Origin: a virus
DNA: 23,789 nt
Virus genome (UHGV): UHGV-1460385
Reading direction: 5' to 3' (one strand)
Part shown: positions 576-23,299 of the stretch, in pieces
Numbering within the stretch: position 1 is the stretch's first letter
How the letters are laid out: every line of letters starts with the position of its first letter
Program-made: the position numbers and the translations under genes
The notes under the pieces: generated by a model
Told to the model about the DNA's origin: nothing
The model's database searches: none
Seen by the model: the letters and a program-made list of their open reading frames with translations, nothing else

Positions 576-3263
576 CTATTCCACAACATCATCTTCTATC
601 AATTCAGCCTTATTTAGTTGTTCCTTAAGCTTATTCCATGCAGAATCCTCAGGCATCTGTACTCGCACAGAAACGAATTGATTAGCAGGAATGTCGATCG
701 GGTCACCGTTCGAAACACCAGGGATGTCGTTACGTGCAAAAACGGGCGAGTTATCATGAGTGCGGTGAAACGTTTTCACCAACACAGATCCATCTTGGTT
801 AACAACATAATCCAGCCAGATGAGCGGCTGCTTGTTTCGGTCCTGCGGTATTTCAAATCCACCATCAATCCCCCCCCATGAAGCATCTGCATTCAGACCT
901 ACGCAACCCTCAATCAGATATTCACCCAATGCCAGCCGTGTGACGGTTACCCCATCTGATTCGCGATTTGTTTCACTACTACCGTCTGAGAAAATCTTCA
1001 CAACCGGAGAGGCTTTTTTGATGAAACCACTTGAATCGACGGTCGTGTTCAGCGACGACCATGCCTCAGCCCAGCCTGTGTTACCTGCGCGAATAGCATC
1101 GTCTGCGTAGCGGAAGAACAGTTTTGATGTTGTGGACATGAATATCTGCAACACACGGTTTTTTGCATATCCTGACTCCCATAATGCTCCGTTACCTGTT
1201 CCTTCTGGCTGCCAGTTTGTCACCCCACCTGCAGCTCCTATACTTACACCAGTAGACCAGTCTCCAGCAAATTCTGGAAGATTTAGTGAGTTAGGTGAGC
1301 GAATTGATACATCAACCAGACCAGGGGATCCGAGAATCGACATGCTGCGGGAGGACACCTTAGTAAAAGAGTTGTACCCGCCGTTTTTGGAAATCCTTCC
1401 TGTATAATTATTAGCCCTGTTAGTTCCATTAACTGTAATTTCCCAGGTATCGCCGTTGATGAAGTCGATCTGCAATAGGCAGAATGCTGGCAGCGTCATC
1501 TGTCCTGGCGCAGATGGCCCACCTTCAAACAGTGGCATATCCTGTTCAAGATATGTCACATATCTACCTGCATCTGTATTCCGCAAATAGTCACAAATAG
1601 CCTGTGCCGATGTAAATAGCGCAATACCATCAGCCGGGTTTACAGGGTGACGGCCAGCGTTAATCACCCTTCCGCGAGGGTTAAATAACTGTGATGAGGC
1701 ATTGGATAGCGGAGTCATGTCTACTGTTCCAGGTTCATTAGATGGACAGTTAGCGCGAATGATGTTTAAAGTCCTATAATTTGATCCGCCCCCATTGTCA
1801 TAGCGAATAGACTGTAGAAGATACAATTCCTCAGAGCCAGAAATATCACAAGACTGCACCCCCTCATTTTCAGTGGAGTAAACACTCTTCCCTGAATAAC
1901 TATCCCAGTATGTTTTGAAATCTGCAGGTGACAGCAGGTACTGACCTAATTCTGAACCATTAAGGCTGTACTCAATATAACCCTGCAACCCTGCGAAAGT
2001 ATTTCCAGATCCCGCCGTGGTAGATGCACCAATACCAGCAAATATCCGTTGAGAACCAAGAGCGACACCCTGCCGTTTTGGTTTACCGGCTCCGCGACCT
2101 CCAACATTTGCATCAACCGTAATAGTCCCCATTGGACTGTAAGATCCTTCTATAAGGCTGTTAATATCCAGTGTGTTAAAGATATTGGATACACCTGTCT
2201 CAACATCAAAAATTTTCGGCCAACCCATATCCGCATTTTCGTATATCAGGGTATTACCAAAGCCACTAAACTGATATCGCACTCCAAGGCGTGTTGATTC
2301 AGTGAAGTTTGTAATCTGCGTTTTATCAACCAGCGTACGCGGATCTTCGATAGGGTAAATTCTGATAGTGCGAGATGGGCTGTACGGCAGCAGGATGTAA
2401 CGCTGTCCTGCCACTCGGTAAACGTGGATGCCTTCTGGTGCACCAACGTTATTCGGAAAATGAAGACGTGTTACCAATGCTCCTGTTACCCAGTCATGCA
2501 CCGTAACCCATACCGATGCGGGGTCTAGCGTCTGCCAGCCGATGTATACCATTCCATCATTGCTGTCTATGTAAATCCCCTGAAATCCCATGGTCGTGTA
2601 ACCATACTGATCTTTAAGATCTGCGGTAATCTCATCGTCTATGATGCTGAATTCTAATTTCCAGTTCAGCGGCCTACGCGTACCACTGACATGCCTAGAA
2701 ATATGAGACAGGTAGCTTTTAACCCCGCCTGCGATAATGTATCTATGTTTGATCTCAGTAACAATTCCAGTTGCAACTGGAGTGCATTTATAGACGCCGC
2801 CGTTTATTCTAATAAAATTGGTTCCTGTTAGATTATCCCCAATGGCAACGTCTTTTCTACTATTCTTAAACGTCCCATTACCTAAGTCAGTAACAAGCAA
2901 TGCCCCTTCTACATATTTCAATGACTGATCAGGGTCATACTTCAGCACATTAGGAAAATAGAACTGCTGCGCACCATACGCATCATAAACAGCCATAGAG
3001 TGGCCTTGCACAGTTACGAACTTGGCAATCTGTCCGTTATATACCGGGTAACCAGCAGCGTTAATGATTATTGGTTGCGAAACAGGAACGTGAGAACCGT
3101 CTTCATTCTCCACATAGACCTGAATCTGGTTTTCTGGATTTACAGGATCAGTGTCAATTTTACCGATATAAATTTTGCCATTGGCTACGGCTTTAAAAGA
3201 ACGCGCCATAGTGAAGAGTTGCGAAGGCATCGATACGATCACATTGGCTGTAATGTCTCTCAT
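576..3263 (-). CDS. Tailspike / receptor-binding protein (895 aa): P22-type N-terminal head-binding domain fused to a large non-P22 C-terminal body
   Basis: Residues 1-110 ([40 protein letters not shown]...[12 protein letters not shown]...NVLKYDPDQ) closely match my recollection of the P22 gp9 head-binding domain. The remaining ~780 aa do not resemble the P22 endorhamnosidase body. Last gene of the late operon, after ant, as in P22. ATG at 3263 with GGAG 9 nt upstream; TAG stop at 576-578. Confidence 0.9.
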
Positions 3264-3321
3264 TTAATTTGCTCCAGACACAAGGAATCGCCGCAGCATG
3301 GCTACGGTGAATTTTGGGCAT

Positions 3322-3344
3322 AAAAAAACCCAGCCGAAGCTGGG
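3322..3344 (-). terminator. Intrinsic terminator between ant and the tailspike gene
   Basis: Minus-strand CCCAGC-TTCG-GCTGGG hairpin followed by TTTTTTT (plus-strand A7 at 3322-3328). Canonical GC stem with TTCG tetraloop. Confidence 0.75.
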
Positions 3345-3385
3345 TCGTTGCGTTGGTTATTGACCTACACTTTTCGTGCAGGTAG

Positions 3386-4315
3386 TTAAAGTTTAATTGA
3401 GTGGCACGCTCTATCACGTATCGCTGCGAATGAAGCTATCTCTTTAAGTGCCCAGCTTTGCTCAGCCATTAAATGGCGAAGTGCTTTTAGTTCAGCTCTT
3501 ACTGCTGAAACGTCATACCCCGCTTTTGTCAGAATATTGATTAGTTTATACGCCGGACTGCATTCAACGAGTGCGCTGCGGTCAAGAGCAACAGTATCAC
3601 CGCATTGCTGCCTGATAATGGCGTAAGGTGCATTTTCAGCAAACCATGAAATCGGGAAGTTAATATCCAGTTTTGGCGCTGGTAACTCTTCTTGTTTGCC
3701 AATGAACTCACCTTCAAGCGGAACGCGAGCAGCAAGTGACAGTGCTTCGGTAAACTGCTCCTCACTGATTTCTTTGTACGAACATCCAAAATGGGATTTC
3801 AGTGACGACCACATGGTGATCATCGCCTTAGCCTGTTTTTCTTTTGGCAGAGACTGACCGCGACTCATGACGAGTTGTTTAATGGCTTCCTGCTGTTCAG
3901 TGGTAATTTTACTCGGCAACGCCTTTTTAGCTTTGCGTGGGTTAACTACATGACCTTTAGTCCAGTACTCGTAGAGCACATCGTCACACTCTTCCTGATA
4001 CTGGATTACCTTGTCGCGGATTTCAGGGCGGACTTTGTTTGGACTGATGGTTTGCAGCCAGCCAGCAAGTTTGCGAAGTGCCAAACAAATAATCTCACGG
4101 CACTGTTCATCACCAGGAAGCTGCATTGTGATTTTCACAATGGAGGTTTTAAACCGTTGCTTTATTTTCGTAAACTGTGAAGCCCAATCCATACCCATAC
4201 CTTCAACGATAGGTTTCATTGGGGTGTACGGCTCACCGTTGTGATTGACGACATAAAGCTCTGCGCCGTGGAATGGTACATTGATAGTAGATACTGCTGT
4301 TGCTATACTTTTCAT
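3386..4315 (-). CDS. ant: Antirepressor Ant (P22_AR-type N- and C-terminal domains), 309 aa from ATG 4315
   Basis: Position immediately upstream of the tailspike and downstream of arc, as in P22 immI; size near P22 Ant (300 aa). N-terminal VPFHGAELYVVNHNGEPYTPMKPIVEGMGMDW...QLPGDEQ resembles the P22 antirepressor N-domain family as I recall it. The ORF-track start at 4381 is TTG; the first ATG (4315) has AGGAAA 7 nt upstream. Confidence 0.7.
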   Translation of the reverse strand: MKSIATAVSTINVPFHGAELYVVNHNGEPYTPMKPIVEGMGMDWASQFTKIKQRFKTSIVKITMQLPGDEQCREIICLALRKLAGWLQTISPNKVRPEIRDKVIQYQEECDDVLYEYWTKGHVVNPRKAKKALPSKITTEQQEAIKQLVMSRGQSLPKEKQAKAMITMWSSLKSHFGCSYKEISEEQFTEALSLAARVPLEGEFIGKQEELPAPKLDINFPISWFAENAPYAIIRQQCGDTVALDRSALVECSPAYKLINILTKAGYDVSAVRAELKALRHLMAEQSWALKEIASFAAIRDRACHSIKL

Positions 4316-4390
4316 GTCAATATTTCCTAAGACGATTTGTTGATACCGAAGCCCTGACTGTTCCAGCAGTTGGGGCTTCAACGTTTTTCC
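4316..4390 (+). ncRNA. sar: sar-type antisense RNA candidate (~73 nt) covering the ant ribosome-binding site
   Basis: Plus-strand promoter -35 TTGATA (4281-4286), 17-bp spacer, -10 TATACT (4304-4309) with TGc extension. Predicted start near 4316, directly opposite the ant start codon. Ends at a long hairpin (GAAGCCC..ACTG-ttccag-CAGT..GGGCTTC, 4348-4379) followed by ACGTTTTT. Matches the known P22 sar arrangement; transcript not demonstrated. Confidence 0.5.
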
Positions 4391-4647
4391 ACTTCATTTT
4401 GAATTTGCTTAAGTAGCATATTTGTCTCGTCAAGCCTCTTGTTAATACGGTCAAGGCTTTCTACTAAATCGTTATGTGCATGTGATACTTCGTAATTTGA
4501 GACTGATTTCTTTTCCTCTATCGTCTTTGTCAATCGTTCCCCTGATTGATACATATTGATTAGCGCTGTAAAAATCACAAGCAAGCAAACCACAATGATT
4601 GCGCCAGACAAAAATTGTAAAGAACGATCAAGCAATGACACCCTCAT
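4378..4647 (-). CDS. Hypothetical 89-aa protein with one N-terminal transmembrane helix and a charged coiled-coil tail, between arc and ant
   Basis: ATG at 4647 overlaps the arc stop (ATGA). Predicted TM segment LSGAIIVVCLLVIFTALI followed by a heptad-like charged region. No family recognised. Confidence 0.5.
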   Translation of the reverse strand: MRVSLLDRSLQFLSGAIIVVCLLVIFTALINMYQSGERLTKTIEEKKSVSNYEVSHAHNDLVESLDRINKRLDETNMLLKQIQNEVEKR

Positions 4648-4802
4648 ACCATTACCCCCTCCCTCTTCAGGCTGTCCAATACTCGCTTGTAAATCTCAGA
4701 GTTAACAGATCGCTCATTCTCTTTGGCTACCTTGCGCACCAAATCCAATACTTCTTTAGGCATCCGCAAATTAAACTGCGGCATTTTTCTTGCACCTTGC
4801 AT
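4644..4802 (-). CDS. arc: Arc repressor (ribbon-helix-helix), 52 aa; below the 60-aa cutoff so absent from the ORF track
   Basis: Translation by hand: MQGARKMPQFNLRMPKEVLDLVRKVAKENERSVNSEIYKRVLDSLKREGVMV. This matches the P22 Arc sequence as I recall it (MKGMSKMPQFNLRWPREVLDLVRKVAEENGRSVNSEIYQRVMESFKKEGRIGA). GGAG 5 nt upstream of the ATG; TGA stop at 4644-4646. Confidence 0.85.
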   Translation of the reverse strand: MQGARKMPQFNLRMPKEVLDLVRKVAKENERSVNSEIYKRVLDSLKREGVMV

Positions 4803-4818
4803 ACCCTCTCCCAATCAA

Positions 4819-4835
4819 TGAACCACCGTGGTTCA
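4819..4835. promoter_or_regulatory. Omnt-like palindromic operator TGAACCA-CCG-TGGTTCA
   Basis: Perfect 7-bp inverted repeat with 3-bp spacer between the divergent mnt and arc genes. Its core CCACCGTGG resembles the symmetric P22 mnt operator core (TCCACGGTGGA, from memory). Confidence 0.55.
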
Positions 4836-4836
4836 A

Positions 4837-4870
4837 TTGAGAATGTACTATCACCGTTATAGACTGTCAA
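4837..4870. promoter_or_regulatory. Overlapping divergent promoters: Pmnt-like (plus) and Pant-like (minus)
   Basis: Plus strand: -35 TTGAGA (4837-4842), 17 bp, -10 TAGACT (4860-4865). Minus strand: -35 TTGACA (4870-4865), 17 bp, -10 TACATT (4847-4842). The two share bases, and the Pant-like transcript would start inside the palindrome. Confidence 0.45.
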
Positions 4871-4889
4871 GAAAAAACATGGTGATAAA

Positions 4890-5144
4890 ATGTCCAGAGA
4901 AGACCCACAATTTAAGTTGCGCCTTCCAGCAGAGTTAAAAGCAAAGTTAGACCAAAGGGCAAAAATGAATGGTCGGTCTATCAATTCTGAACTAGTTCAG
5001 ATCGTACAGAAGGCGTTATCTGAACCATCACCGATTGCAGGCTATCGAGACGAAGCTGAACGCTTGGCTGATCAGCAAGCAGAGCAGTTCAAGACTGTTG
5101 TGTTTGAGACACTTAAAAAGATTTATGGCAAGGATGATAAATAA
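4890..5144 (+). CDS. mnt: Mnt repressor (Arc/MetJ-family ribbon-helix-helix), 84 aa
   Basis: MSREDPQFKLRLPAELKAKLDQRAKMNGRSINSELVQIVQKALSEPSPIAGYRDEAERLADQQ... is near-colinear with the P22 Mnt sequence as I recall it (ARDDPHFNFRMPMEVREKLKFRAEANGRSMNSELLQIVQDALSKPSPVTGYRNDAERLADEQ...). Divergent from arc-ant across an operator. Confidence 0.85.
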   Translation: MSREDPQFKLRLPAELKAKLDQRAKMNGRSINSELVQIVQKALSEPSPIAGYRDEAERLADQQAEQFKTVVFETLKKIYGKDDK

Positions 5145-5680
5145 TGCTGCACACAATTCATTTCTTATGCCCCGTTAACACCGCCACTGTTGGGCAACTT
5201 CAGAACCACTGTCTCACCGCATTATCTCAAGGCGCAACTGAATTAAATATCCATATATCAAGTCAGGGAGGGGAAACAGCCGCTGGCTTTACTGCGTATA
5301 ACTTTCTTAAGTCACTCCCTGTTACCGTTAGAACTCACAACATAAGCAATGTTGAATCCATAGCTAATATCGTTTTCCTGGCTGGCTCAGAACGTTTCGC
5401 AAACCCATTATCAAGATTCCTGTTACATCCTCTATTATGGTGCTTTGCCTCCCCAGCCGCCGACCATGCCAGATTGAGAGAGTACGGGAAATGCCTCGAT
5501 AACGATCTTGATCGCTTCGTTGAGACGTTCAATATCGACATCGGAACCCATATTAGGTGGGCATCCCTGATAGCAGACTCGACCATTTTGGATGCTAACA
5601 AGGCTCTTGAGCATGGCATAATTAATTCCATAAAAACTGCAAGGCTGGTATCCAATCAGGCAAACTGGTGGGTTGTTTGA
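5144..5680 (+). CDS. Truncated ClpP-family (S14-like) serine protease, 178 aa, translationally coupled to mnt
   Basis: Start ATG overlaps the mnt TAA (TAATG). By-eye alignment to E. coli ClpP: NIHISSQGGETAAG vs YINSPGGVITAG; SNVESIANIVFLAG vs GQAASMGAFLLTAG (Ser); RFLLHPL vs RVMIHQPL (His); ILDANKALEHGII vs FLSAPEAVEYGLV with an upstream Asp. Ser-His-Asp spacing matches. The ~25 N-terminal residues of ClpP are absent. Confidence 0.75.
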   Translation: MLHTIHFLCPVNTATVGQLQNHCLTALSQGATELNIHISSQGGETAAGFTAYNFLKSLPVTVRTHNISNVESIANIVFLAGSERFANPLSRFLLHPLLWCFASPAADHARLREYGKCLDNDLDRFVETFNIDIGTHIRWASLIADSTILDANKALEHGIINSIKTARLVSNQANWWVV

Positions 5681-5704
5681 TGGGTAAATCATGAATACTC
5701 CTTA

Positions 5705-5730
5705 TAAAAAACCCGCGATTAAGCGGGTTT
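5705..5730. terminator. Bidirectional intrinsic terminator between the convergent ClpP-like gene and the minus-strand antirepressor operon
   Basis: AAAAAA-CCCGC-GATTAA-GCGGG-TTT. Strong U-run for the minus-strand transcript, weaker (TTT) for the plus-strand one. Confidence 0.7.
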
Positions 5731-5736
5731 AGTTGG

Positions 5737-5958
5737 TTAGTTATCAAAAAGTCCGTACGTTTCTTCTTCTTCAGGTGTAAGGGGAAGAATCTCTACTCTA
5801 TCTATAGATACCTTTTCAATGTACCCATGAGGTCTACTTAAAATTAAAGCTCTCTCATGCCACAGAACTCCAAGAATGTGATACCTCCCAGCATCGCCTT
5901 TTACCCTGGCTCTTCCTTTGATTCTTGGCGGCATAATGCCATATTTTTTCTTTGCCAT
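5737..5958 (-). CDS. Hypothetical 73-aa protein, last gene of the minus-strand antirepressor operon
   Basis: ATG at 5958 overlaps the upstream TAA (TAATG); basic N-terminus, acidic C-terminus; followed by the terminator at 5705-5730. No family recognised. Confidence 0.45.
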   Translation of the reverse strand: MAKKKYGIMPPRIKGRARVKGDAGRYHILGVLWHERALILSRPHGYIEKVSIDRVEILPLTPEEEETYGLFDN

Positions 5959-6686
5959 TATGCAACATTACTCCCATGAATCAGGTGTTGTAGAGCTTTA
6001 ACACCTTCCGCATTGTAGCGGAATGCTTCCACCTGTTTGCTGGAATGTGCAGATTTATCCAGGAAGAACTTCCCGTACTGCTCAGTTTTGAGGTTGTTTG
6101 CGTTAGCAATGCGACCAATCTTGTTGGCCGTTACTCCAAGCTGCTCTGCAACCTCCCCTGCTGAGTAGTAATGCTCTTCTATTGCTGGAAGAGGTATTGC
6201 ATTAAAACCAACGATCGGGTTGATTATGCTTGCTGCCGCAGTCTGCTTTGCTTCCGGCGCAAGATTTGGCATCAAATCGAACAGATTGGTAACAGCTTCA
6301 ACCGTCATTTTCAATGTTCGCGCCTGGCGATACTCAACAAGTCCACTCGACGATTTACCGCTTTTAATGTGCGCTTCTTGCATACTTTCAAGTTGGTCTA
6401 CAAGTGAGCGGCGAACAGCTTTAGATTCACGAGCAGCCACTCGAAGGGCTTGCTTAATTGACATAACAACTTTTTCAGAAGTTGTCTTGTTTGATTTTTG
6501 AACTACGAAAATTTCGTAGTGCTCACCTTCAAGTTCATCCTTAATGCGTGCAATAAAGTCGTTATTTCGGACTTCTTTTTCCCCGCACTGTCTACGAGCA
6601 TGATTGACCATCTCTAACAGGTACTGGCTATCAATGGTTTTATCCGTGACAACGGATCCGATGTTTGCTACATTCTTAAAAGTCAT
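5958..6686 (-). CDS. Rha-like N-domain plus KilA-C-like C-domain protein (antirepressor-family regulator), 242 aa from ATG 6686
   Basis: N-terminal TIDSQYLLEMVNHARRQCGEKEVRNNDFIARIKDEL...HYEIFVVQKS resembles the Rha family. C-terminal YSAGEVAEQLGVTANKIGRIANANNLKTEQYGKFFLDKS resembles KilA-C-type antirepressor C-domains. AAGGA 7 nt upstream of ATG 6686; the track start at 6737 is GTG and would run through a terminator hairpin. Confidence 0.65.
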   Translation of the reverse strand: MTFKNVANIGSVVTDKTIDSQYLLEMVNHARRQCGEKEVRNNDFIARIKDELEGEHYEIFVVQKSNKTTSEKVVMSIKQALRVAARESKAVRRSLVDQLESMQEAHIKSGKSSSGLVEYRQARTLKMTVEAVTNLFDLMPNLAPEAKQTAAASIINPIVGFNAIPLPAIEEHYYSAGEVAEQLGVTANKIGRIANANNLKTEQYGKFFLDKSAHSSKQVEAFRYNAEGVKALQHLIHGSNVA

Positions 6687-6724
6687 TAGGCATTCCTTAT
6701 GTGGTAGTAAGGGTGTGACATAGG

Positions 6725-6755
6725 CCGCCAGCAGCACACTGGCGGTTTTCTTTTT
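6725..6755 (+). terminator. Orphan plus-strand intrinsic terminator in the Bro-N / Rha-like intercistronic gap
   Basis: CCGCCAG-cagcaca-CTGGCGG followed by TTTTCTTTTT. Canonical geometry. There is no annotated plus-strand gene upstream, so it would terminate an antisense transcript. Confidence 0.6.
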
Positions 6756-6774
6756 GCGCAGTCCGGCGCACCAA

Positions 6775-7401
6775 TCAATGAATCCATTCCTCGCCGCGAA
6801 GTTTTGCCAGCATTGGCTGAGCGTTCTTTACGACAAAATTGTTGGTATCAAGATTCTTCATTTCACGAAGAAGTGATTTCTTGGTTTCTTCTGACATGTA
6901 GCGAGTCTCATATGCAATATCGTAAATCCTTCCTGAAAGCTCAGAACCAATTTGCTTCATTCCTGGGTAGATGTGTTTGCACATTTGTTGACTCTTCTCC
7001 ATCCACAATTGTAAGTAGCAGAGATTAACCAGTTCTTCGTCAGTAAACTGTTTTGCAATCGGTGAGCATTCTGCCTGCCGATCCAAAATATCCAGCACCC
7101 AGCGGCGGAACTCTTTGGCTACCGGAGTGCGAGCAAACATCGCGATTAGGTGGGCACCGCGTAGTGAGAAAACTCGCACTTTTTTGCGATAATTTCCTGA
7201 GGTACTCACTTCGAGTACCTGAGTCATTCCGGCGCTAAACTCATCGCTATACTTGTTATAAATCATTGTTACTGCACGACTATTTGCGTATTTAAGTGCA
7301 GATGCAATATTAGATGATGTAAACCAAACACCATGCATATCACGGGTGGGCACCAACTCAACTCCGTGGAAGTTGTAATCTGATTTTGCTACAATATTCA
7401 T
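6775..7401 (-). CDS. Bro-N domain antirepressor-like protein, 208 aa from ATG 7401
   Basis: NFHGVELVPTRDMHGVWFTSSNIASALKYANSRAVTMIYNKY...KKVRVFSLRGAHLIAMFARTPVAKEFRRWVLDIL fits the Bro-N prophage antirepressor pattern. AGGAAA 6 nt upstream of ATG 7401; the track start at 7506 is TTG. Confidence 0.8.
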   Translation of the reverse strand: MNIVAKSDYNFHGVELVPTRDMHGVWFTSSNIASALKYANSRAVTMIYNKYSDEFSAGMTQVLEVSTSGNYRKKVRVFSLRGAHLIAMFARTPVAKEFRRWVLDILDRQAECSPIAKQFTDEELVNLCYLQLWMEKSQQMCKHIYPGMKQIGSELSGRIYDIAYETRYMSEETKKSLLREMKNLDTNNFVVKNAQPMLAKLRGEEWIH

Positions 7402-7476
7402 GTTAGTTTCCTTGCATACGGTTACTGACATAGAGGCCCGGTTTGTGTTCGCGCACTGCCGGGCTTCACTATTTTT
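7402..7476 (+). ncRNA. Second sar-like antisense RNA candidate, opposite the Bro-N gene start
   Basis: Extended -10 TGcTACAAT at 7387-7395 on the plus strand, ending 3 nt before the complement of the Bro-N ATG (same geometry as at ant). Hairpin GCCCGG..CCGGGC (7436-7464) followed by U-rich TTCACTATTTTTATT. Weak -35, and the U-tract is interrupted. Confidence 0.35.
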
Positions 7477-7648
7477 ATTGGATGACAACATCGCCCTTTG
7501 CCTCAAGTTTCATCAATAACTCCATTCGATAAGCTATCTCTGCCTGAATTGACCTATGGCATCTTTTTGCTGATTCGCGGATATGTGAATCAACCTTTTC
7601 TGTAAAACGAACCTGACGCGGCTTGATGGAAGATATCTTTTCAGTCAT
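7475..7648 (-). CDS. Arc-like ribbon-helix-helix regulator, 57 aa; absent from the ORF track
   Basis: Translation by hand: MTEKISSIKPRQVRFTEKVDSHIRESAKRCHRSIQAEIAYRMELLMKLEAKGDVVIQ. Pattern of beta-strand (RQVRFTEKV) then two helices with RS-I-EI motif is typical of Arc/CopG. GGAG 6 nt upstream of ATG 7648; TAA at 7475-7477. Confidence 0.7.
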   Translation of the reverse strand: MTEKISSIKPRQVRFTEKVDSHIRESAKRCHRSIQAEIAYRMELLMKLEAKGDVVIQ

Positions 7649-7697
7649 TATGCACTCCTGTTTTTAAAAAACTCATAATCTCACTTTTTGTAGTTTG

Positions 7698-7726
7698 ATT
7701 ATTCACTCACACTCAGCATGAGTCAA
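7698..7726 (-). promoter_or_regulatory. Pant-like promoter for the Arc-like / Bro-N operon
   Basis: Minus strand -35 TTGACT (7726-7721), 17-bp spacer containing tandem CACTCA repeats, -10 AATAAT (7703-7698). Confidence 0.4.
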
Positions 7727-7747
7727 TGAATTTTTTATGGTGAACTA

Positions 7748-8389
7748 ATGAATTTTGACGATCAATTCCCATCAAGAGTATCTCTGGCAAGACAGTCCAG
7801 GGGTATGACGCAGGCGCAGTTGTCAAAATTAGCTGGTGTTGTTCAACGTCAAATAGCTGCATACGAGGGTGGTGAGGCTAAACCACGGCTTCGGGTATTG
7901 CAGGCATTAGCCAACGCATTAGGTACTACAGCTGAGTGGTTAGCTCTAGGTGAAGGTCAGGGTCCGGGAACAAAAAACGTCATGCCTGACGTTCTGGTAA
8001 AGCAAATACCAATCCTCAAACTAGATGAAGTTATGCATTACCTAAACACAGGTGAACATTCATCGTCTAGATTTCATCCGGCAATATACAATGTTGGTGA
8101 CTCTGCATTTGCATTGACTATTGAAGGTGAAGCTATGACTACAAGTTCAGGTATTAGCTTTCCCAGAGGATCGGTTGTCACGTTCAGCCCTCTAGTAAAA
8201 GCTAAAAGCAAAGATTATGTAATAGCATCATTGGATAAAGAGCAAATATTGAGCTTCAAACAGGTTTACATTGGTGAAATAGAGACAAACCTAGTATCCC
8301 TAAACCCAATGTATCCTAATATTCTTGTTAGAAATGAAGATGTTAGTATTTTGGCAACCGCAGTTTACCTTGAAATCCCGTTGCTTTGA
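7748..8389 (+). CDS. Lambda-CI/LexA-fold repressor (HTH plus S24-like C-domain) with Ala at the nucleophile position
   Basis: N-terminal Cro/C1-type HTH (MTQAQLSKLAGVVQRQIAAYEGGEAKP). C-domain aligns with lambda CI: FALTIEGEAM vs FWLDVQGDSM (Ser to Ala, codon GCT), LSFKQV vs ATFKKL (Lys kept), LNPMYPNI vs LNPQYPMI. Confidence 0.85.
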   Translation: MNFDDQFPSRVSLARQSRGMTQAQLSKLAGVVQRQIAAYEGGEAKPRLRVLQALANALGTTAEWLALGEGQGPGTKNVMPDVLVKQIPILKLDEVMHYLNTGEHSSSRFHPAIYNVGDSAFALTIEGEAMTTSSGISFPRGSVVTFSPLVKAKSKDYVIASLDKEQILSFKQVYIGEIETNLVSLNPMYPNILVRNEDVSILATAVYLEIPLL

Positions 8390-8449
8390 TATCCTTTAGG
8401 AAGCGACACATTATCATCTGGTATCCTGCTCAAAACTAAGGAGGTTGGT

Positions 8450-8638
8450 GTGAAGAAAAAATTTGTAAACGTTGCAAAGTGCGCAATTTTTATATTTTTT
8501 ATGACCTTTTACGGATTTAGTGCCGGAGAAGGTTTCGATCGTGATGCCAATGCATTCAGTTTCTTTTGTCTGTCTATAGTGGTCATAATTGTATGGGTGG
8601 AATTAAAGCAAACATTGTTTCATGTGCTAAGGAAATAA
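8450..8638 (+). CDS. Small two-helix membrane protein (62 aa) downstream of the CI-like repressor
   Basis: GTG start preceded by AAGGAGG at 5-nt spacing. Two hydrophobic segments (CAIFIFFMTFYGF and FSFFCLSIVVIIVWV). Same strand as the repressor, 60 bp downstream. Confidence 0.55.
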   Translation: MKKKFVNVAKCAIFIFFMTFYGFSAGEGFDRDANAFSFFCLSIVVIIVWVELKQTLFHVLRK

Positions 8639-8655
8639 CCATCCATGGCATTTAG

Positions 8656-10485
8656 TCACTGCTGTGTTGCCTCAGTGGCAAGCAGCGGTCTGATGGCATT
8701 TGCAGCGTTACTTAATGCTCTTTCATAGGCTGGCGTTCCTGCTTTGGTGTTTGCCAAACGTAAGAGAGCATTCCTTGCTGCTTTTGACTCATACAAGCGC
8801 ATCATTGCACCGAAACCAGCCTCAAGCCCCATTGATACGCCAAGAGTCGCAGTTGCGCCAATCGTCCTTATCCTGTTGGCTTGCGATTGTCCTGTCTGTG
8901 TTACTACATTTGCGGCGTCCGACCTTGCTGTTTGCTGTAGAACTTCATGAAGAGCATCAAGCTCTTTCATGTGTCTCCCACTGAATATCGTGTTATAGAT
9001 CTGACCGTCAGATTGCGACTTCAACTTATTTAACTCGGTAAGAAATTTTGTTGGCGAGTCTCCTGCTTTTTCTGCAATCTTGCTGATATAAGCAGCACGC
9101 ATAGCGTTCTTTCCATCTTCACTAAGAGCTGGCCATATCCTCTTAATATCTGATGGTTTTCTGCTGAATACAACACTGTTTATTAGCTCTGGAGTAAACT
9201 CTTTTTTAGCTTTGTTGAGATTATTCGCAATCCTTTTATTAAGAACCTTATTGAAGACGTTAGAGTAGTCAGAGTTTGCCTTGACGTATCTGGCGGCCTC
9301 TCCAGCCCCCAAATACCGCGCTGCGTTATTCCTCAAATCTGCCCCCATTGCCCTCTCCACGGTATCAGTTGCGGCTTTCGCGCTATTAGGAAAAACCATG
9401 GCATCTCCCTGAATACTTTCCCTCAAGGCTGACCGCAACTCTCTCAATAGACCAAAATCTATATCTGGTTTAGCAAGTTCTTCTCGCAAATCGGATAACC
9501 CGCGAATCAAATCCTTATTTGCCACTTTCCCAAGCCTATTAGCTCTGGTAAGTACGTTGTCGATAACCTTAATAGATTTTGATGTGTCAACTGGTGTGTC
9601 TCCCATTTTGGCTGTAATGTCTTCAATAACGCTTCCGGCCGAATCCTTCCTTGACTTCAGAGAACCATACAGATCGTCAACAACAACTGATGGGCTATAT
9701 TCACCATATTTCTCAAGCTGTTTTTTAACTAGCTGACTTCTTTTTGCATACTGCTCAGCTCGCTTTGAGCCTGTCCCGAGCAAAGCCCCCTCGGCATCCT
9801 GAGTTAGGCCGCGAGTGAAAGCATTTTTCGGCGGGATAACATCAGATGTCATTGGTGTCACGCCCATCGATTCTGAGGTGGCAATTTTTTTCGCTACTTC
9901 TGGCGCGATATCGCCTTTTATAGCCGTTATTCCACGCCCTATTCCCTTTGCTGCTGCGGAAAGAACACCCTGAGCAGCAAGGTTAACTCCGGCGTTTATG
10001 GCTGCATTTTGCGCGAAATCGCCTTTCTGGTTTGCGGCTTCTGCCAGTGATCCAATAGCCATGCTTCCTGCAGTTCCAACTCCTGGAACTAAATACCCGC
10101 CAATTGTTTCTCCAGCTTGCGCATAAGGGTCTGTTGGTCGATCTACTGGACGATAGACATCGTCCAAAACCTTGTGACCACCAAGCCCCTGGCTGATTGC
10201 ATTAATCAGACTTGCGCCACCCTGCAATACGTCAAATGGTATGTTTACCAGACCACGACCAGCCTGTTCTGCAATTTGCCCTGCACTTTGACCACCAGTG
10301 AGCCAATCGCCAGCTTGTTGCATCAATGATGGTTCTTCCTGTGTTGGTGCATTATTGGCCTGATTAACTGTTTGTTGCTGAACAGCCTGACCAGCAAAAT
10401 ACTCATCAATGGCGGTGCCAATATCTTCGGTGCTCGTACCATCAGGAAAGGTAAATGTCTTACCGTTTGCAGTTACTTTCATCAT
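8656..10485 (-). CDS. 16: Ejection (internal virion) protein gp16, 609 aa
   Basis: Same length as P22 gp16 and N-terminus [16 protein letters not shown] as I recall it; last of the three ejection-protein genes. ATGA overlap with gp20. Confidence 0.9.
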
Positions 10486-22756: not shown

Positions 22757-23299
22757 TTAATTGGTGAGTCCGGGGATTACGGTTTGCCCGTGCTGTTCAA
22801 GGCGTTCAATTCTCGCCAGTAGCTGAGGCTTCTTAATTTTTCCCCAGCGATTGAGCAGACGACCTGACATGCTGGCAACATCCTTCTCTTTCATGTACTC
22901 CAGCATTACGGCATTTCTCTCTTCTTCAAATTGACGATGACCAACCTGAAGCATGGCGTACATCCAGTTAAATGCGTTGATGTAAGCAATTTTGATACGC
23001 ATTGCTTCTTTTTTGGTGTAGGACATAACCAAAAGCATCAACCCATCCTTACGGAGACGGTAGAATTTTTGCGGCTTACCATTCTGTAACTCATTGTTTT
23101 TATAGCAAAGCTCAAAGTTGAGCTTTGTATCAAACTCAGGAGGGCAAGCTTCTATGGTTCGCTCAATGTCACGGACTACGTTCTTCGGCAGCTTTCCAAA
23201 TGCTTTTGCCACCATAAAAGAATCTGTAACCGGATCGTTGTTTGCTACAAAAATTAGGTCTCTGAAATCTATATCGTTAACAACGGTTGGGTAGTTCAT
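22757..23299 (-). CDS. rha: Phage regulatory protein Rha, 180 aa
   Basis: PVTDSFMVAKAFGKLPKNVVRDIERTIE...FYRLRKDGLMLLVMSYTKKEAMRIKIAYINAFNWM fits the Rha family signature. Sits between the lysis genes and the terminase genes, as rha does in P22. Confidence 0.85.
   Translation of the reverse strand: MNYPTVVNDIDFRDLIFVANNDPVTDSFMVAKAFGKLPKNVVRDIERTIEACPPEFDTKLNFELCYKNNELQNGKPQKFYRLRKDGLMLLVMSYTKKEAMRIKIAYINAFNWMYAMLQVGHRQFEEERNAVMLEYMKEKDVASMSGRLLNRWGKIKKPQLLARIERLEQHGQTVIPGLTN

Follow-up and report, generated by a model that had tools for sequence, protein, structure and literature searches.

The short ClpP type considered here is already known from PpClpP1 of Pseudomonas plecoglossicida (PDB 9UXT), characterized in a 2026 Pseudomonas study (PMC12900304), and atypical ClpP isoforms in general have also been described. 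PpClpP1 is truncated at its N-terminus, has a Ser-His-Pro active site and assembles into a homotetradecamer with an axial pore of 42.7 Å (PMC12900304). Its peptidase activity is about 13-fold below that of the canonical paralogue, it did not retain ClpX in pull-downs and on its own it degrades neither fluorescein isothiocyanate (FITC)-casein nor green fluorescent protein (GFP)-ssrA, while together with canonical ClpP it forms a stable, more active heterotetradecamer, a hybrid that binds ClpX (PMC12900304). PpClpP1 was proposed as a drug target, in a paper that mentions neither prophages nor the gene neighbourhood (PMC12900304). The atypical ClpP2 of P. aeruginosa is reported to tune ClpXP assembly and downstream phenotypes, and ClpXP of E. 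coli has roughly 200 substrates (PMC13056064). Here we analysed the UHGV virus genome UHGV-1460385, a stretch of 23,789 nucleotides (nt) referred to as the window, in which a gene for a 178-amino-acid (aa) protein directly follows a homologue of the P22 repressor gene mnt (the pair spans positions 4890-5680). The explanation that we favour, with a probability of roughly 0.45, is that this gene is a moron encoding a short accessory ClpP of the PpClpP1 type, that it was captured into the mnt unit and that its product pairs with host ClpP.

Membership of the 178-aa protein in the ClpP family over the ClpP core was supported by both sequence and structure. The protein matched PF00574 with 44.4 bits against a cut-off of 20.2 (E 2.2e-11), residues 24-165 falling on profile positions 37-180 of 182, and an AF2 model built from an alignment of 59 relatives reached a mean predicted local distance difference test (pLDDT) value of 94.2. 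When this model was compared by Foldseek with the ClpPs of E. coli, S. aureus and T. thermophilus, template modelling (TM) scores of 0.82-0.84 were obtained, and the alpha/beta fold with its handle was present. A preliminary description of the locus had aligned the protein with ClpP by eye and proposed a profile search and a structure prediction as checks, both of which came out positive for the ClpP family and fold. The best structural match was PDB 9UXT, with a TM score of 0.93 and a root-mean-square deviation of 1.7 Å, followed by Listeria ClpP1/2 as the second best. As observed with Foldseek, a phmmer search against solved structures placed 9UXT far ahead (E 1.8e-35, residues 3-175 against 4-179, 38-40% identity). 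The same description had found the protein not assignable to any described system, a view that no longer holds, since it belongs to the short ClpP isoform family, of which PpClpP1 is a characterized member.

To judge from an alignment made with MAFFT, Met1 pairs with Leu24 of mature E. coli ClpP, leaving 23 N-terminal residues of that enzyme without a counterpart, close to the truncation of about 25 residues that had been claimed. The missing part takes in the axial loops, with which canonical ClpP gates its pore and reaches the ATPase, as well as the beginning of helix A. We take the annotated start as real because the relatives open at the same M[LI]HT[IV]HF. One Klebsiella RefSeq protein is longer, with 238 aa (P0027, 206 member sequences; loci L003-L006, 6001-6717); conservation is absent from residues 1-52, and homology starts at an internal MIHTVHF. 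The extension was considered as a hidden ClpP N-terminus and rejected, as it is non-conserved and looks like an over-called start.

The catalytic triad proposed for the protein was borne out for two of its three residues. Ser72 and His95 align with Ser97 and His122 of ClpP and are invariant in 26 of 26 and in 59 of 59 relatives, while the Asp fails, its column (Asp171 in ClpP) being occupied by Ser146; the 26 relatives have Ala (14), Ser (9), Gly (2) or Thr (1) at this position. An Asp145, one residue before that column, was found in the closest relatives only. Since no Asp is conserved, the active site is best described as a Ser-His dyad. The oxyanion Gly and the equivalent of Arg118 of ClpP are conserved. 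We then considered the pocket for the IGF/LGF loops, which we take from the ClpP-ADEP and ClpXP structures to be formed in E. coli ClpP by Y60, Y62, F82, I90, M92, F112, L114 and L189. Compared with E. coli ClpP, the predicted ClpX/acyldepsipeptide (ADEP) docking pocket carries Y60N, Y62H, F82S, I90H and L114N, with L189 variable and M92I and F112F kept. The NCBIfam ClpP equivalogs were not reached either (TIGR00493, 19.2 bits against 308.6; PRK models, 24-40 bits against cut-offs of 228-361). Lacking the catalytic Asp, the axial loops, the hydrophobic pocket and an equivalog-level score, the protein is predicted not to be a canonical ATP-dependent ClpP. What it does show is homology to 9UXT over its full length, the same truncated architecture and a Ser-His pair with a non-Asp third position, as in the short accessory ClpPs.

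Canonical E. coli ClpP (MEROPS S14, PF00574) and the window protein therefore have in common the fold with its handle (TM about 0.83), Ser and His, the oxyanion Gly and the Arg118 equivalent, but they are only about 20-25% identical, and the window protein is without the 23 N-terminal residues, the catalytic Asp and most residues of the ClpX/ADEP pocket. PpClpP1 is closer, being of the same length class (183 against 178 aa) and resembling the window protein in its N-terminal truncation, its Ser and His and its non-Asp third triad position. The two differ in that the third position is Pro in PpClpP1 and Ser, in the same alignment column, in the window protein, and in that PpClpP1 belongs to a chromosomal clade of Pseudomonas whereas the window clade is carried by temperate phages. 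PpClpP1 also shares only the first Trp of the C-terminal NWWVxC motif of the phage clade. Across that clade the motif is conserved as NWWV(T)C (residues 172-178, window positions 5657-5677), with Trp175 present in at least 90% of relatives; the segment is predicted to form a terminal beta-strand, and canonical ClpP has no such motif. A family profile search returned 212 cluster representatives at E < 1e-30, mostly of 180-200 aa, indicating that the short ClpPs are a sizeable family; with the window clade, the family to which PpClpP1 belongs now extends to mobile copies carried by phages. As a concept, the window protein resembles P. aeruginosa ClpP2, Listeria ClpP1 and Mycobacterium ClpP1P2, where a second ClpP ring, weak or inactive alone, modulates ClpXP through a hetero-14-mer; those atypical ClpPs, however, are chromosomal paralogues of their own host, whereas here a prophage would supply the isoform to a host with a single clpP.

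The contexts of the PpClpP1 clade were obtained by a genome-wide locus search using the PpClpP1 subclade, which gave homologues 67-93% identical in 79 further species loci of Pseudomonas, Azotobacter and Stutzerimonas (L098-L177). About 50 of the 79 loci have as common neighbours an iron-permease-family protein, a KGG stress protein, a DUF6555 protein, a PLD-type enzyme and LigD, a setting that suggests a stationary-phase or stress neighbourhood. That PpClpP1 might itself be prophage-borne was ruled out, the clade being chromosomal and largely syntenic in Pseudomonas.

In the window, the protease gene is joined to mnt without a promoter-sized gap, and its ribosome-binding site lies within the last mnt codons (Table 1). 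The overlap of the mnt stop codon with the start of the 178-aa ORF was read exactly where it had been reported and, with the ribosome-binding site inside mnt, it agrees with the proposed translational coupling to a genuine mnt within immI, as far as this can be predicted from the sequence. The upstream ORF had been called a Mnt homologue, which is confirmed by its two Pfam matches and by 60% identity to P22 Mnt across 81 residues. The Omnt-like operator said to flank the pair is present as a palindrome collinear with that of P22, and 3' of it stand the ATTGAGAAT and TGTCAA promoter blocks, both known from the P22 Pmnt/Pant region. On the other side, the terminator reported downstream of the pair was recovered as a hairpin that folds with similar energy on either strand, the minus strand having the better U-tract. 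Taken together, mnt, its operator, the divergent arc-ant genes and sar are as predicted for, and make up, a genuine P22-type immI region.

Table 1. Features of the mnt-protease unit and its surroundings in the window (strand given as + or -; a dot marks features assigned to no single strand)
Feature	Position	Strand	Basis
178-aa short ClpP isoform, PpClpP1 type	5144..5680	+	PF00574, 9UXT match, AF2 model, Foldseek
Codon of catalytic Ser72	5357-5359	+	Residue mapping
Codon of catalytic His95	5426-5428	+	Residue mapping
Codon of Ser146 (ClpP Asp171 position)	5579-5581	+	Residue mapping
TAATG stop/start overlap, mnt to protease gene	5142..5146	+	TAA 5142-5144 shares one base with ATG 5144-5146; kept in all intact P22-like loci
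Shine-Dalgarno-like AAGGA for protease gene	5130..5134	+	Read from sequence; inside mnt codons Gly-Lys-Asp
mnt homologue, 84 aa	4890..5144	+	Pfam Arc 7e-19 (ribbon-helix-helix N-domain) and Repressor_Mnt 3e-12 (Mnt C-terminal domain)
Omnt-like operator, perfect 17-bp palindrome TGAACCACCGTGGTTCA	4819..4835	.	Inverted-repeat search; collinear with annotated P22 mnt operator AGGTCCACCGTGGACCT
Pmnt-like promoter, predicted (TTGAGA, 17-nt spacer, TAGACT)	4837..4865	+	Consensus scan 9/12; ATTGAGAAT block also in P22 Pmnt/Pant region
Pant-like promoter, predicted (TTGACA, 17-nt spacer, TACATT)	4842..4870	-	Consensus scan 10/12; position as P22 Pant; would drive arc, small ORF, ant
arc homologue	4644..4814	-	Pfam Arc 1.4e-24
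ant, antirepressor with P22_AR_N domain	3386..4381	-	Pfam P22_AR_N 5.6e-45
sar antisense RNA	4317..4383	+	Rfam RF00262, 66.2 bits against gathering score 43
Hairpin terminator of mnt-clpP unit (+) and convergent minus-strand genes	5709..5730	.	8-bp GC-rich stem; -13.8 / -13.5 kcal/mol, z -2.9 / -3.5

Whether the linkage recurs in other P22-like immI regions was a further check that had been proposed, and it does: the junction A[TA]AAATAATGCT was identical across about 38 P22-like loci in a locus comparison, although these loci carry at least six very different Mnt alleles. Only the Mnt tail, ..ETLKxxYGKD[DE]K, is invariant in them; upstream of it Mnt is 36-100% identical to that of the window, while the protease is 97-100% identical (79% in Pectobacterium). 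A mosaic joint thus lies inside mnt (window positions 5101-5146; loci L001-L050), where one protease cassette, which includes about the last 13 codons of mnt, follows at least six different N-terminal alleles of Mnt or ribbon-helix-helix (RHH) type. In agreement with this, the megablast match in E. coli genomes typically starts about 40 nt 5' of the mnt stop codon, which, with the invariant junction, indicates that the mobile unit consists of the last dozen or so mnt codons (including the ribosome-binding site), the protease gene and the terminator. The G+C content over positions 3000-9000 gave no foreign signature for the cassette.

All contexts recovered for the enterobacterial clade were temperate phages. 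The protease gene always stands directly after mnt in P22-like prophages of E. coli and Pectobacterium, and relatives that are 51-74% identical stand alone in lambdoid or myovirus-like prophages, where mnt, arc and ant are all absent from the position. No abutting same-strand gene precedes the protease gene in about 55 loci, and in the non-P22 loci the downstream neighbour was on the opposite strand in 50 of 55. Lambdoids of the Klebsiella type have the gene between Rz and the small terminase gene (terS), in one of them (L003) with a terminator and a predicted promoter-like site of its own; in Proteus a relative lies between N and erf, and in Chromobacterium beside lysis and tail-fibre genes. 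The exact gene was found in 128 of 5,426 complete E. coli genomes (about 2.4%), always on the chromosome, with 126 covering at least 80% of the gene, and many of the carriers are avian or human extraintestinal isolates. RefSeq names the product 'ATP-dependent Clp protease proteolytic subunit', next to an 'Arc family DNA-binding protein', and in five phage records other than that of phiv205-1, considered below, the same gene is hypothetical or unannotated. Truncated or interrupted copies occur in a few P22-like viral contigs (L053, L055, L056 and L068; in L056 about 1.4 kb separates mnt from the remaining 3' part), suggesting that the gene is occasionally lost or disrupted. As a separate observation, E. 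coli lambdoid prophages (L080-L086; L081, 5374-5922) encode, 79 nt upstream of the ClpP-isoform homologue and on the same strand, a 182-aa ORF with the motif RNKRSH (Rx4H, HEPN-like), which matched nothing in Pfam or PADLOC and may either be a partner of the homologue or a moron in its own right.

The position 3' of mnt accommodates other genes as well. In P22, mnt had been regarded as a stand-alone gene, which is not strictly true: in the P22 record, orf59a is annotated after mnt and before the mnt terminator, and sieA comes next, with a promoter of its own. In E. coli STEC383 (L178, 4076-5782), the mnt allele of the window (99.3% over 269 nt) is followed on the same strand by three cargo genes, for a 199-aa protein, a YafO-family toxin and a 122-aa protein; Pfam and PADLOC scans of the alternative cargo genes gave the YafO toxin domain only. 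Together, orf59a and the three STEC383 genes indicate that different cargoes can occupy the site 3' of mnt, the ClpP isoform being one of them. The immI regions of P22 and of the window are thus alike in their homologous mnt, arc, ant and sar genes, in the collinear operator/promoter region and in having a cargo gene between mnt and the terminator. They differ in the cargo itself, orf59a in P22 and the ClpP isoform here, and in its attachment, a 99-nt gap preceding orf59a where the window has predicted translational coupling; moreover, P22 has sieA, with none noted in the window, and the window has an extra S24-repressor/antirepressor module before gene 16. The variability of the slot, the antisense placement and the terminator hairpin, together with the promoter-like site predicted in L003, mark the protease gene as a prophage moron, judging by sequence and arrangement.

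If the gene encodes an accessory ClpP that pairs with that of the host, as we favour, the following course of events may be envisaged. Going by P22 Pmnt biology and the sequence, the protease would be produced along with Mnt, in the lysogen. By analogy with PpClpP1, its subunits would assemble into rings of seven, stacked as a 14-mer whose axial pore is wide; this 14-mer would be weak by itself, and the main action would come from one ring paired with a ring of host ClpP. ClpX or ClpA would dock on such a hybrid on the host-ClpP face only, and ClpXP/ClpAP proteolysis in the lysogen would change as a result, in its amount, its activity or its pattern of cleavage. What the prophage gains might, speculatively, lie in excluding other phages, in stabilizing lysogeny or in host fitness.

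Several points weigh against this explanation. What is assumed about the oligomeric state, the activity and the pairing with E. coli ClpP is borrowed from a homologue that is only 38-40% identical and that comes from the chromosomal, syntenic Pseudomonas clade and not from the phage clade. Expression in the lysogen, as we infer it, derives from P22 Pmnt biology and the sequence. The invariant catalytic dyad would suit a stand-alone protease equally well, and the evidence points to no substrate and no phenotype. We are more reserved about the full form of the idea, a dedicated 'proteolysis moron' of enterobacterial temperate phages in which a gate-less ClpP ring that no ATPase can dock on, made from a lysogeny-maintenance operon, co-assembles with the only ClpP of the host and reprogrammes ClpXP/ClpAP, the lysogen gaining phage exclusion or altered regulator stability; stated in this way, it appears doubtful.

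Literature searches found no description of a phage-borne ClpP isoform clade, of a fixed coupling to mnt or of a role in the lysogen. In E. coli and its relatives there is a single ClpP, and many regulators are under the control of ClpXP and ClpAP. A second ClpP ring, if contributed by a prophage, could shift both the choice of proteins degraded in a lysogen and the rate of their degradation; prophages would then have a new way of altering the physiology of their host or of excluding other phages. As the gene is small, offers a clean catalytic mutant (Ser72Ala) and sits in a well-understood operon, the question is directly testable.

The explanation that competes best with pairing to host ClpP is that the protein acts alone, as a gate-less 14-mer whose open pore would admit unfolded or extended polypeptides for degradation without an ATPase, the ejection or early proteins of a superinfecting phage among them, resulting in superinfection exclusion or abortive infection. 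The preliminary description had spoken of a possibly ungated protease, and this stands insofar as the gate residues are absent and the dyad is invariant; the wide pore of the homologue PpClpP1 (42.7 Å) fits as well, as do the location of the cargo slot, which adjoins the sieA slot of P22, the classic moron positions in other phages and the expected expression from a lysogenic promoter. The idea of a free protease is nevertheless weakened, and a hybrid with host ClpP favoured, by PpClpP1 being weak alone and more active as a hybrid: by itself it is low in peptidase activity and inactive on FITC-casein and GFP-ssrA. Toxicity would also be expected of a constitutively open protease, yet 126 E. 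coli genomes keep the gene intact, and it usually has no partner gene. Neither the protease nor Mnt nor the neighbouring genes matched a PADLOC-DB v2 family at E up to 0.1, and the literature yielded no defence phenotype or paper. We regard a stand-alone protease as rather unlikely on this balance.

The physical and translational link to mnt in every P22-like locus examined, with arc, ant and sar adjacent, could instead point to a regulator specific to immI, in which case the protease would degrade Ant (or Arc or Mnt) in lysogens and so back up their repression at the level of transcription. Turnover of Ant had been among the roles first suggested, and it is now disfavoured, as relatives of 51-74% identity occur by themselves in lambdoid and myovirus-like prophages whose neighbouring genes include no mnt, arc or ant; the linkage to mnt is confined to one phage lineage, which makes such a role unlikely. 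Furthermore, the protease remains 97-100% identical while the linked Mnt and Ant alleles span about 31-100%, and a constant protease beside variable alleles argues against a specific, co-evolving substrate. A dedicated regulator of immI is, in our estimate, improbable.

We give still less credence to a toxin-antitoxin or addiction pair, in which the RHH protein would be the antitoxin and the overlapping protease the toxin. The layout does recall type II systems, a small RHH gene coming first with a 1-nt overlap, and the Mnt homologue gave a weak RelB-like antitoxin match (24 bits, under the cut-off of 50). However, the upstream gene is a bona fide Mnt with tetramerization domain and operator, the protease matches no known toxin family and a single protease is joined to at least six very different Mnt N-domains, while some 55 loci have the protease without an abutting upstream gene.

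A prohead (head-maturation) protease, for which the best PHROG match (phrog_94, head maturation protease, 7e-21), an NCBIfam Clp_rel_HeadMat match of 49.3 bits and the GenBank annotation of phiv205-1 could be cited, can practically be dismissed, because the NCBIfam score (NF045542) is far under the cut-off of 120, the gene belongs to immI and not to the head-gene block, whose genes are on the other strand, it is an antisense insert in unrelated phages, the best structural match of its product is a cellular ClpP isoform and P22 is known to assemble without a prohead protease. With the ClpP-related prohead proteases (NF045542, PHROG 94) the window protein shares a distant S14-type sequence similarity only; its score, position and orientation are all wrong for that family, and a scaffold or capsid partner is absent. 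The identical gene of phage phiv205-1 (MN340231; L001, 6764-7300) is labelled 'head maturation protease' in GenBank, probably by an error of homology transfer.

Other genes of the window were also noted. Between arc and ant lies an 89-aa ORF (4378-4647, minus strand) with a hydrophobic N-terminal segment, which matched PHROG_27312, a family without assigned function, at 3e-59; P22 has no gene at this place. A second antirepressor-type module (5737-8389) occupies the region between the terminator and gene 16. It comprises a LexA/S24-family repressor with a helix-turn-helix domain (7748-8389, plus strand), a small RHH/ParD-like gene divergent from it (7475-7648, minus strand), an antirepressor with Bro-N and P22_AR_C domains (6775-7506, minus strand), a 259-aa ORF (5958-6737, minus strand) and a 73-aa ORF matching PHROG_4977 (5737-5958, minus strand). 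With this module, the prophage appears to have two antirepressor circuits, of which Mnt controls one and a repressor of the SOS-cleavable type the other. The tailspike of 895 aa (576-3263, minus strand) combines a P22 head-binding domain with a Phage_tail_C_2 C-terminal domain, and a Rha/ORF11CD3 regulatory gene lies close to the right end of the window (22757-23299, minus strand).

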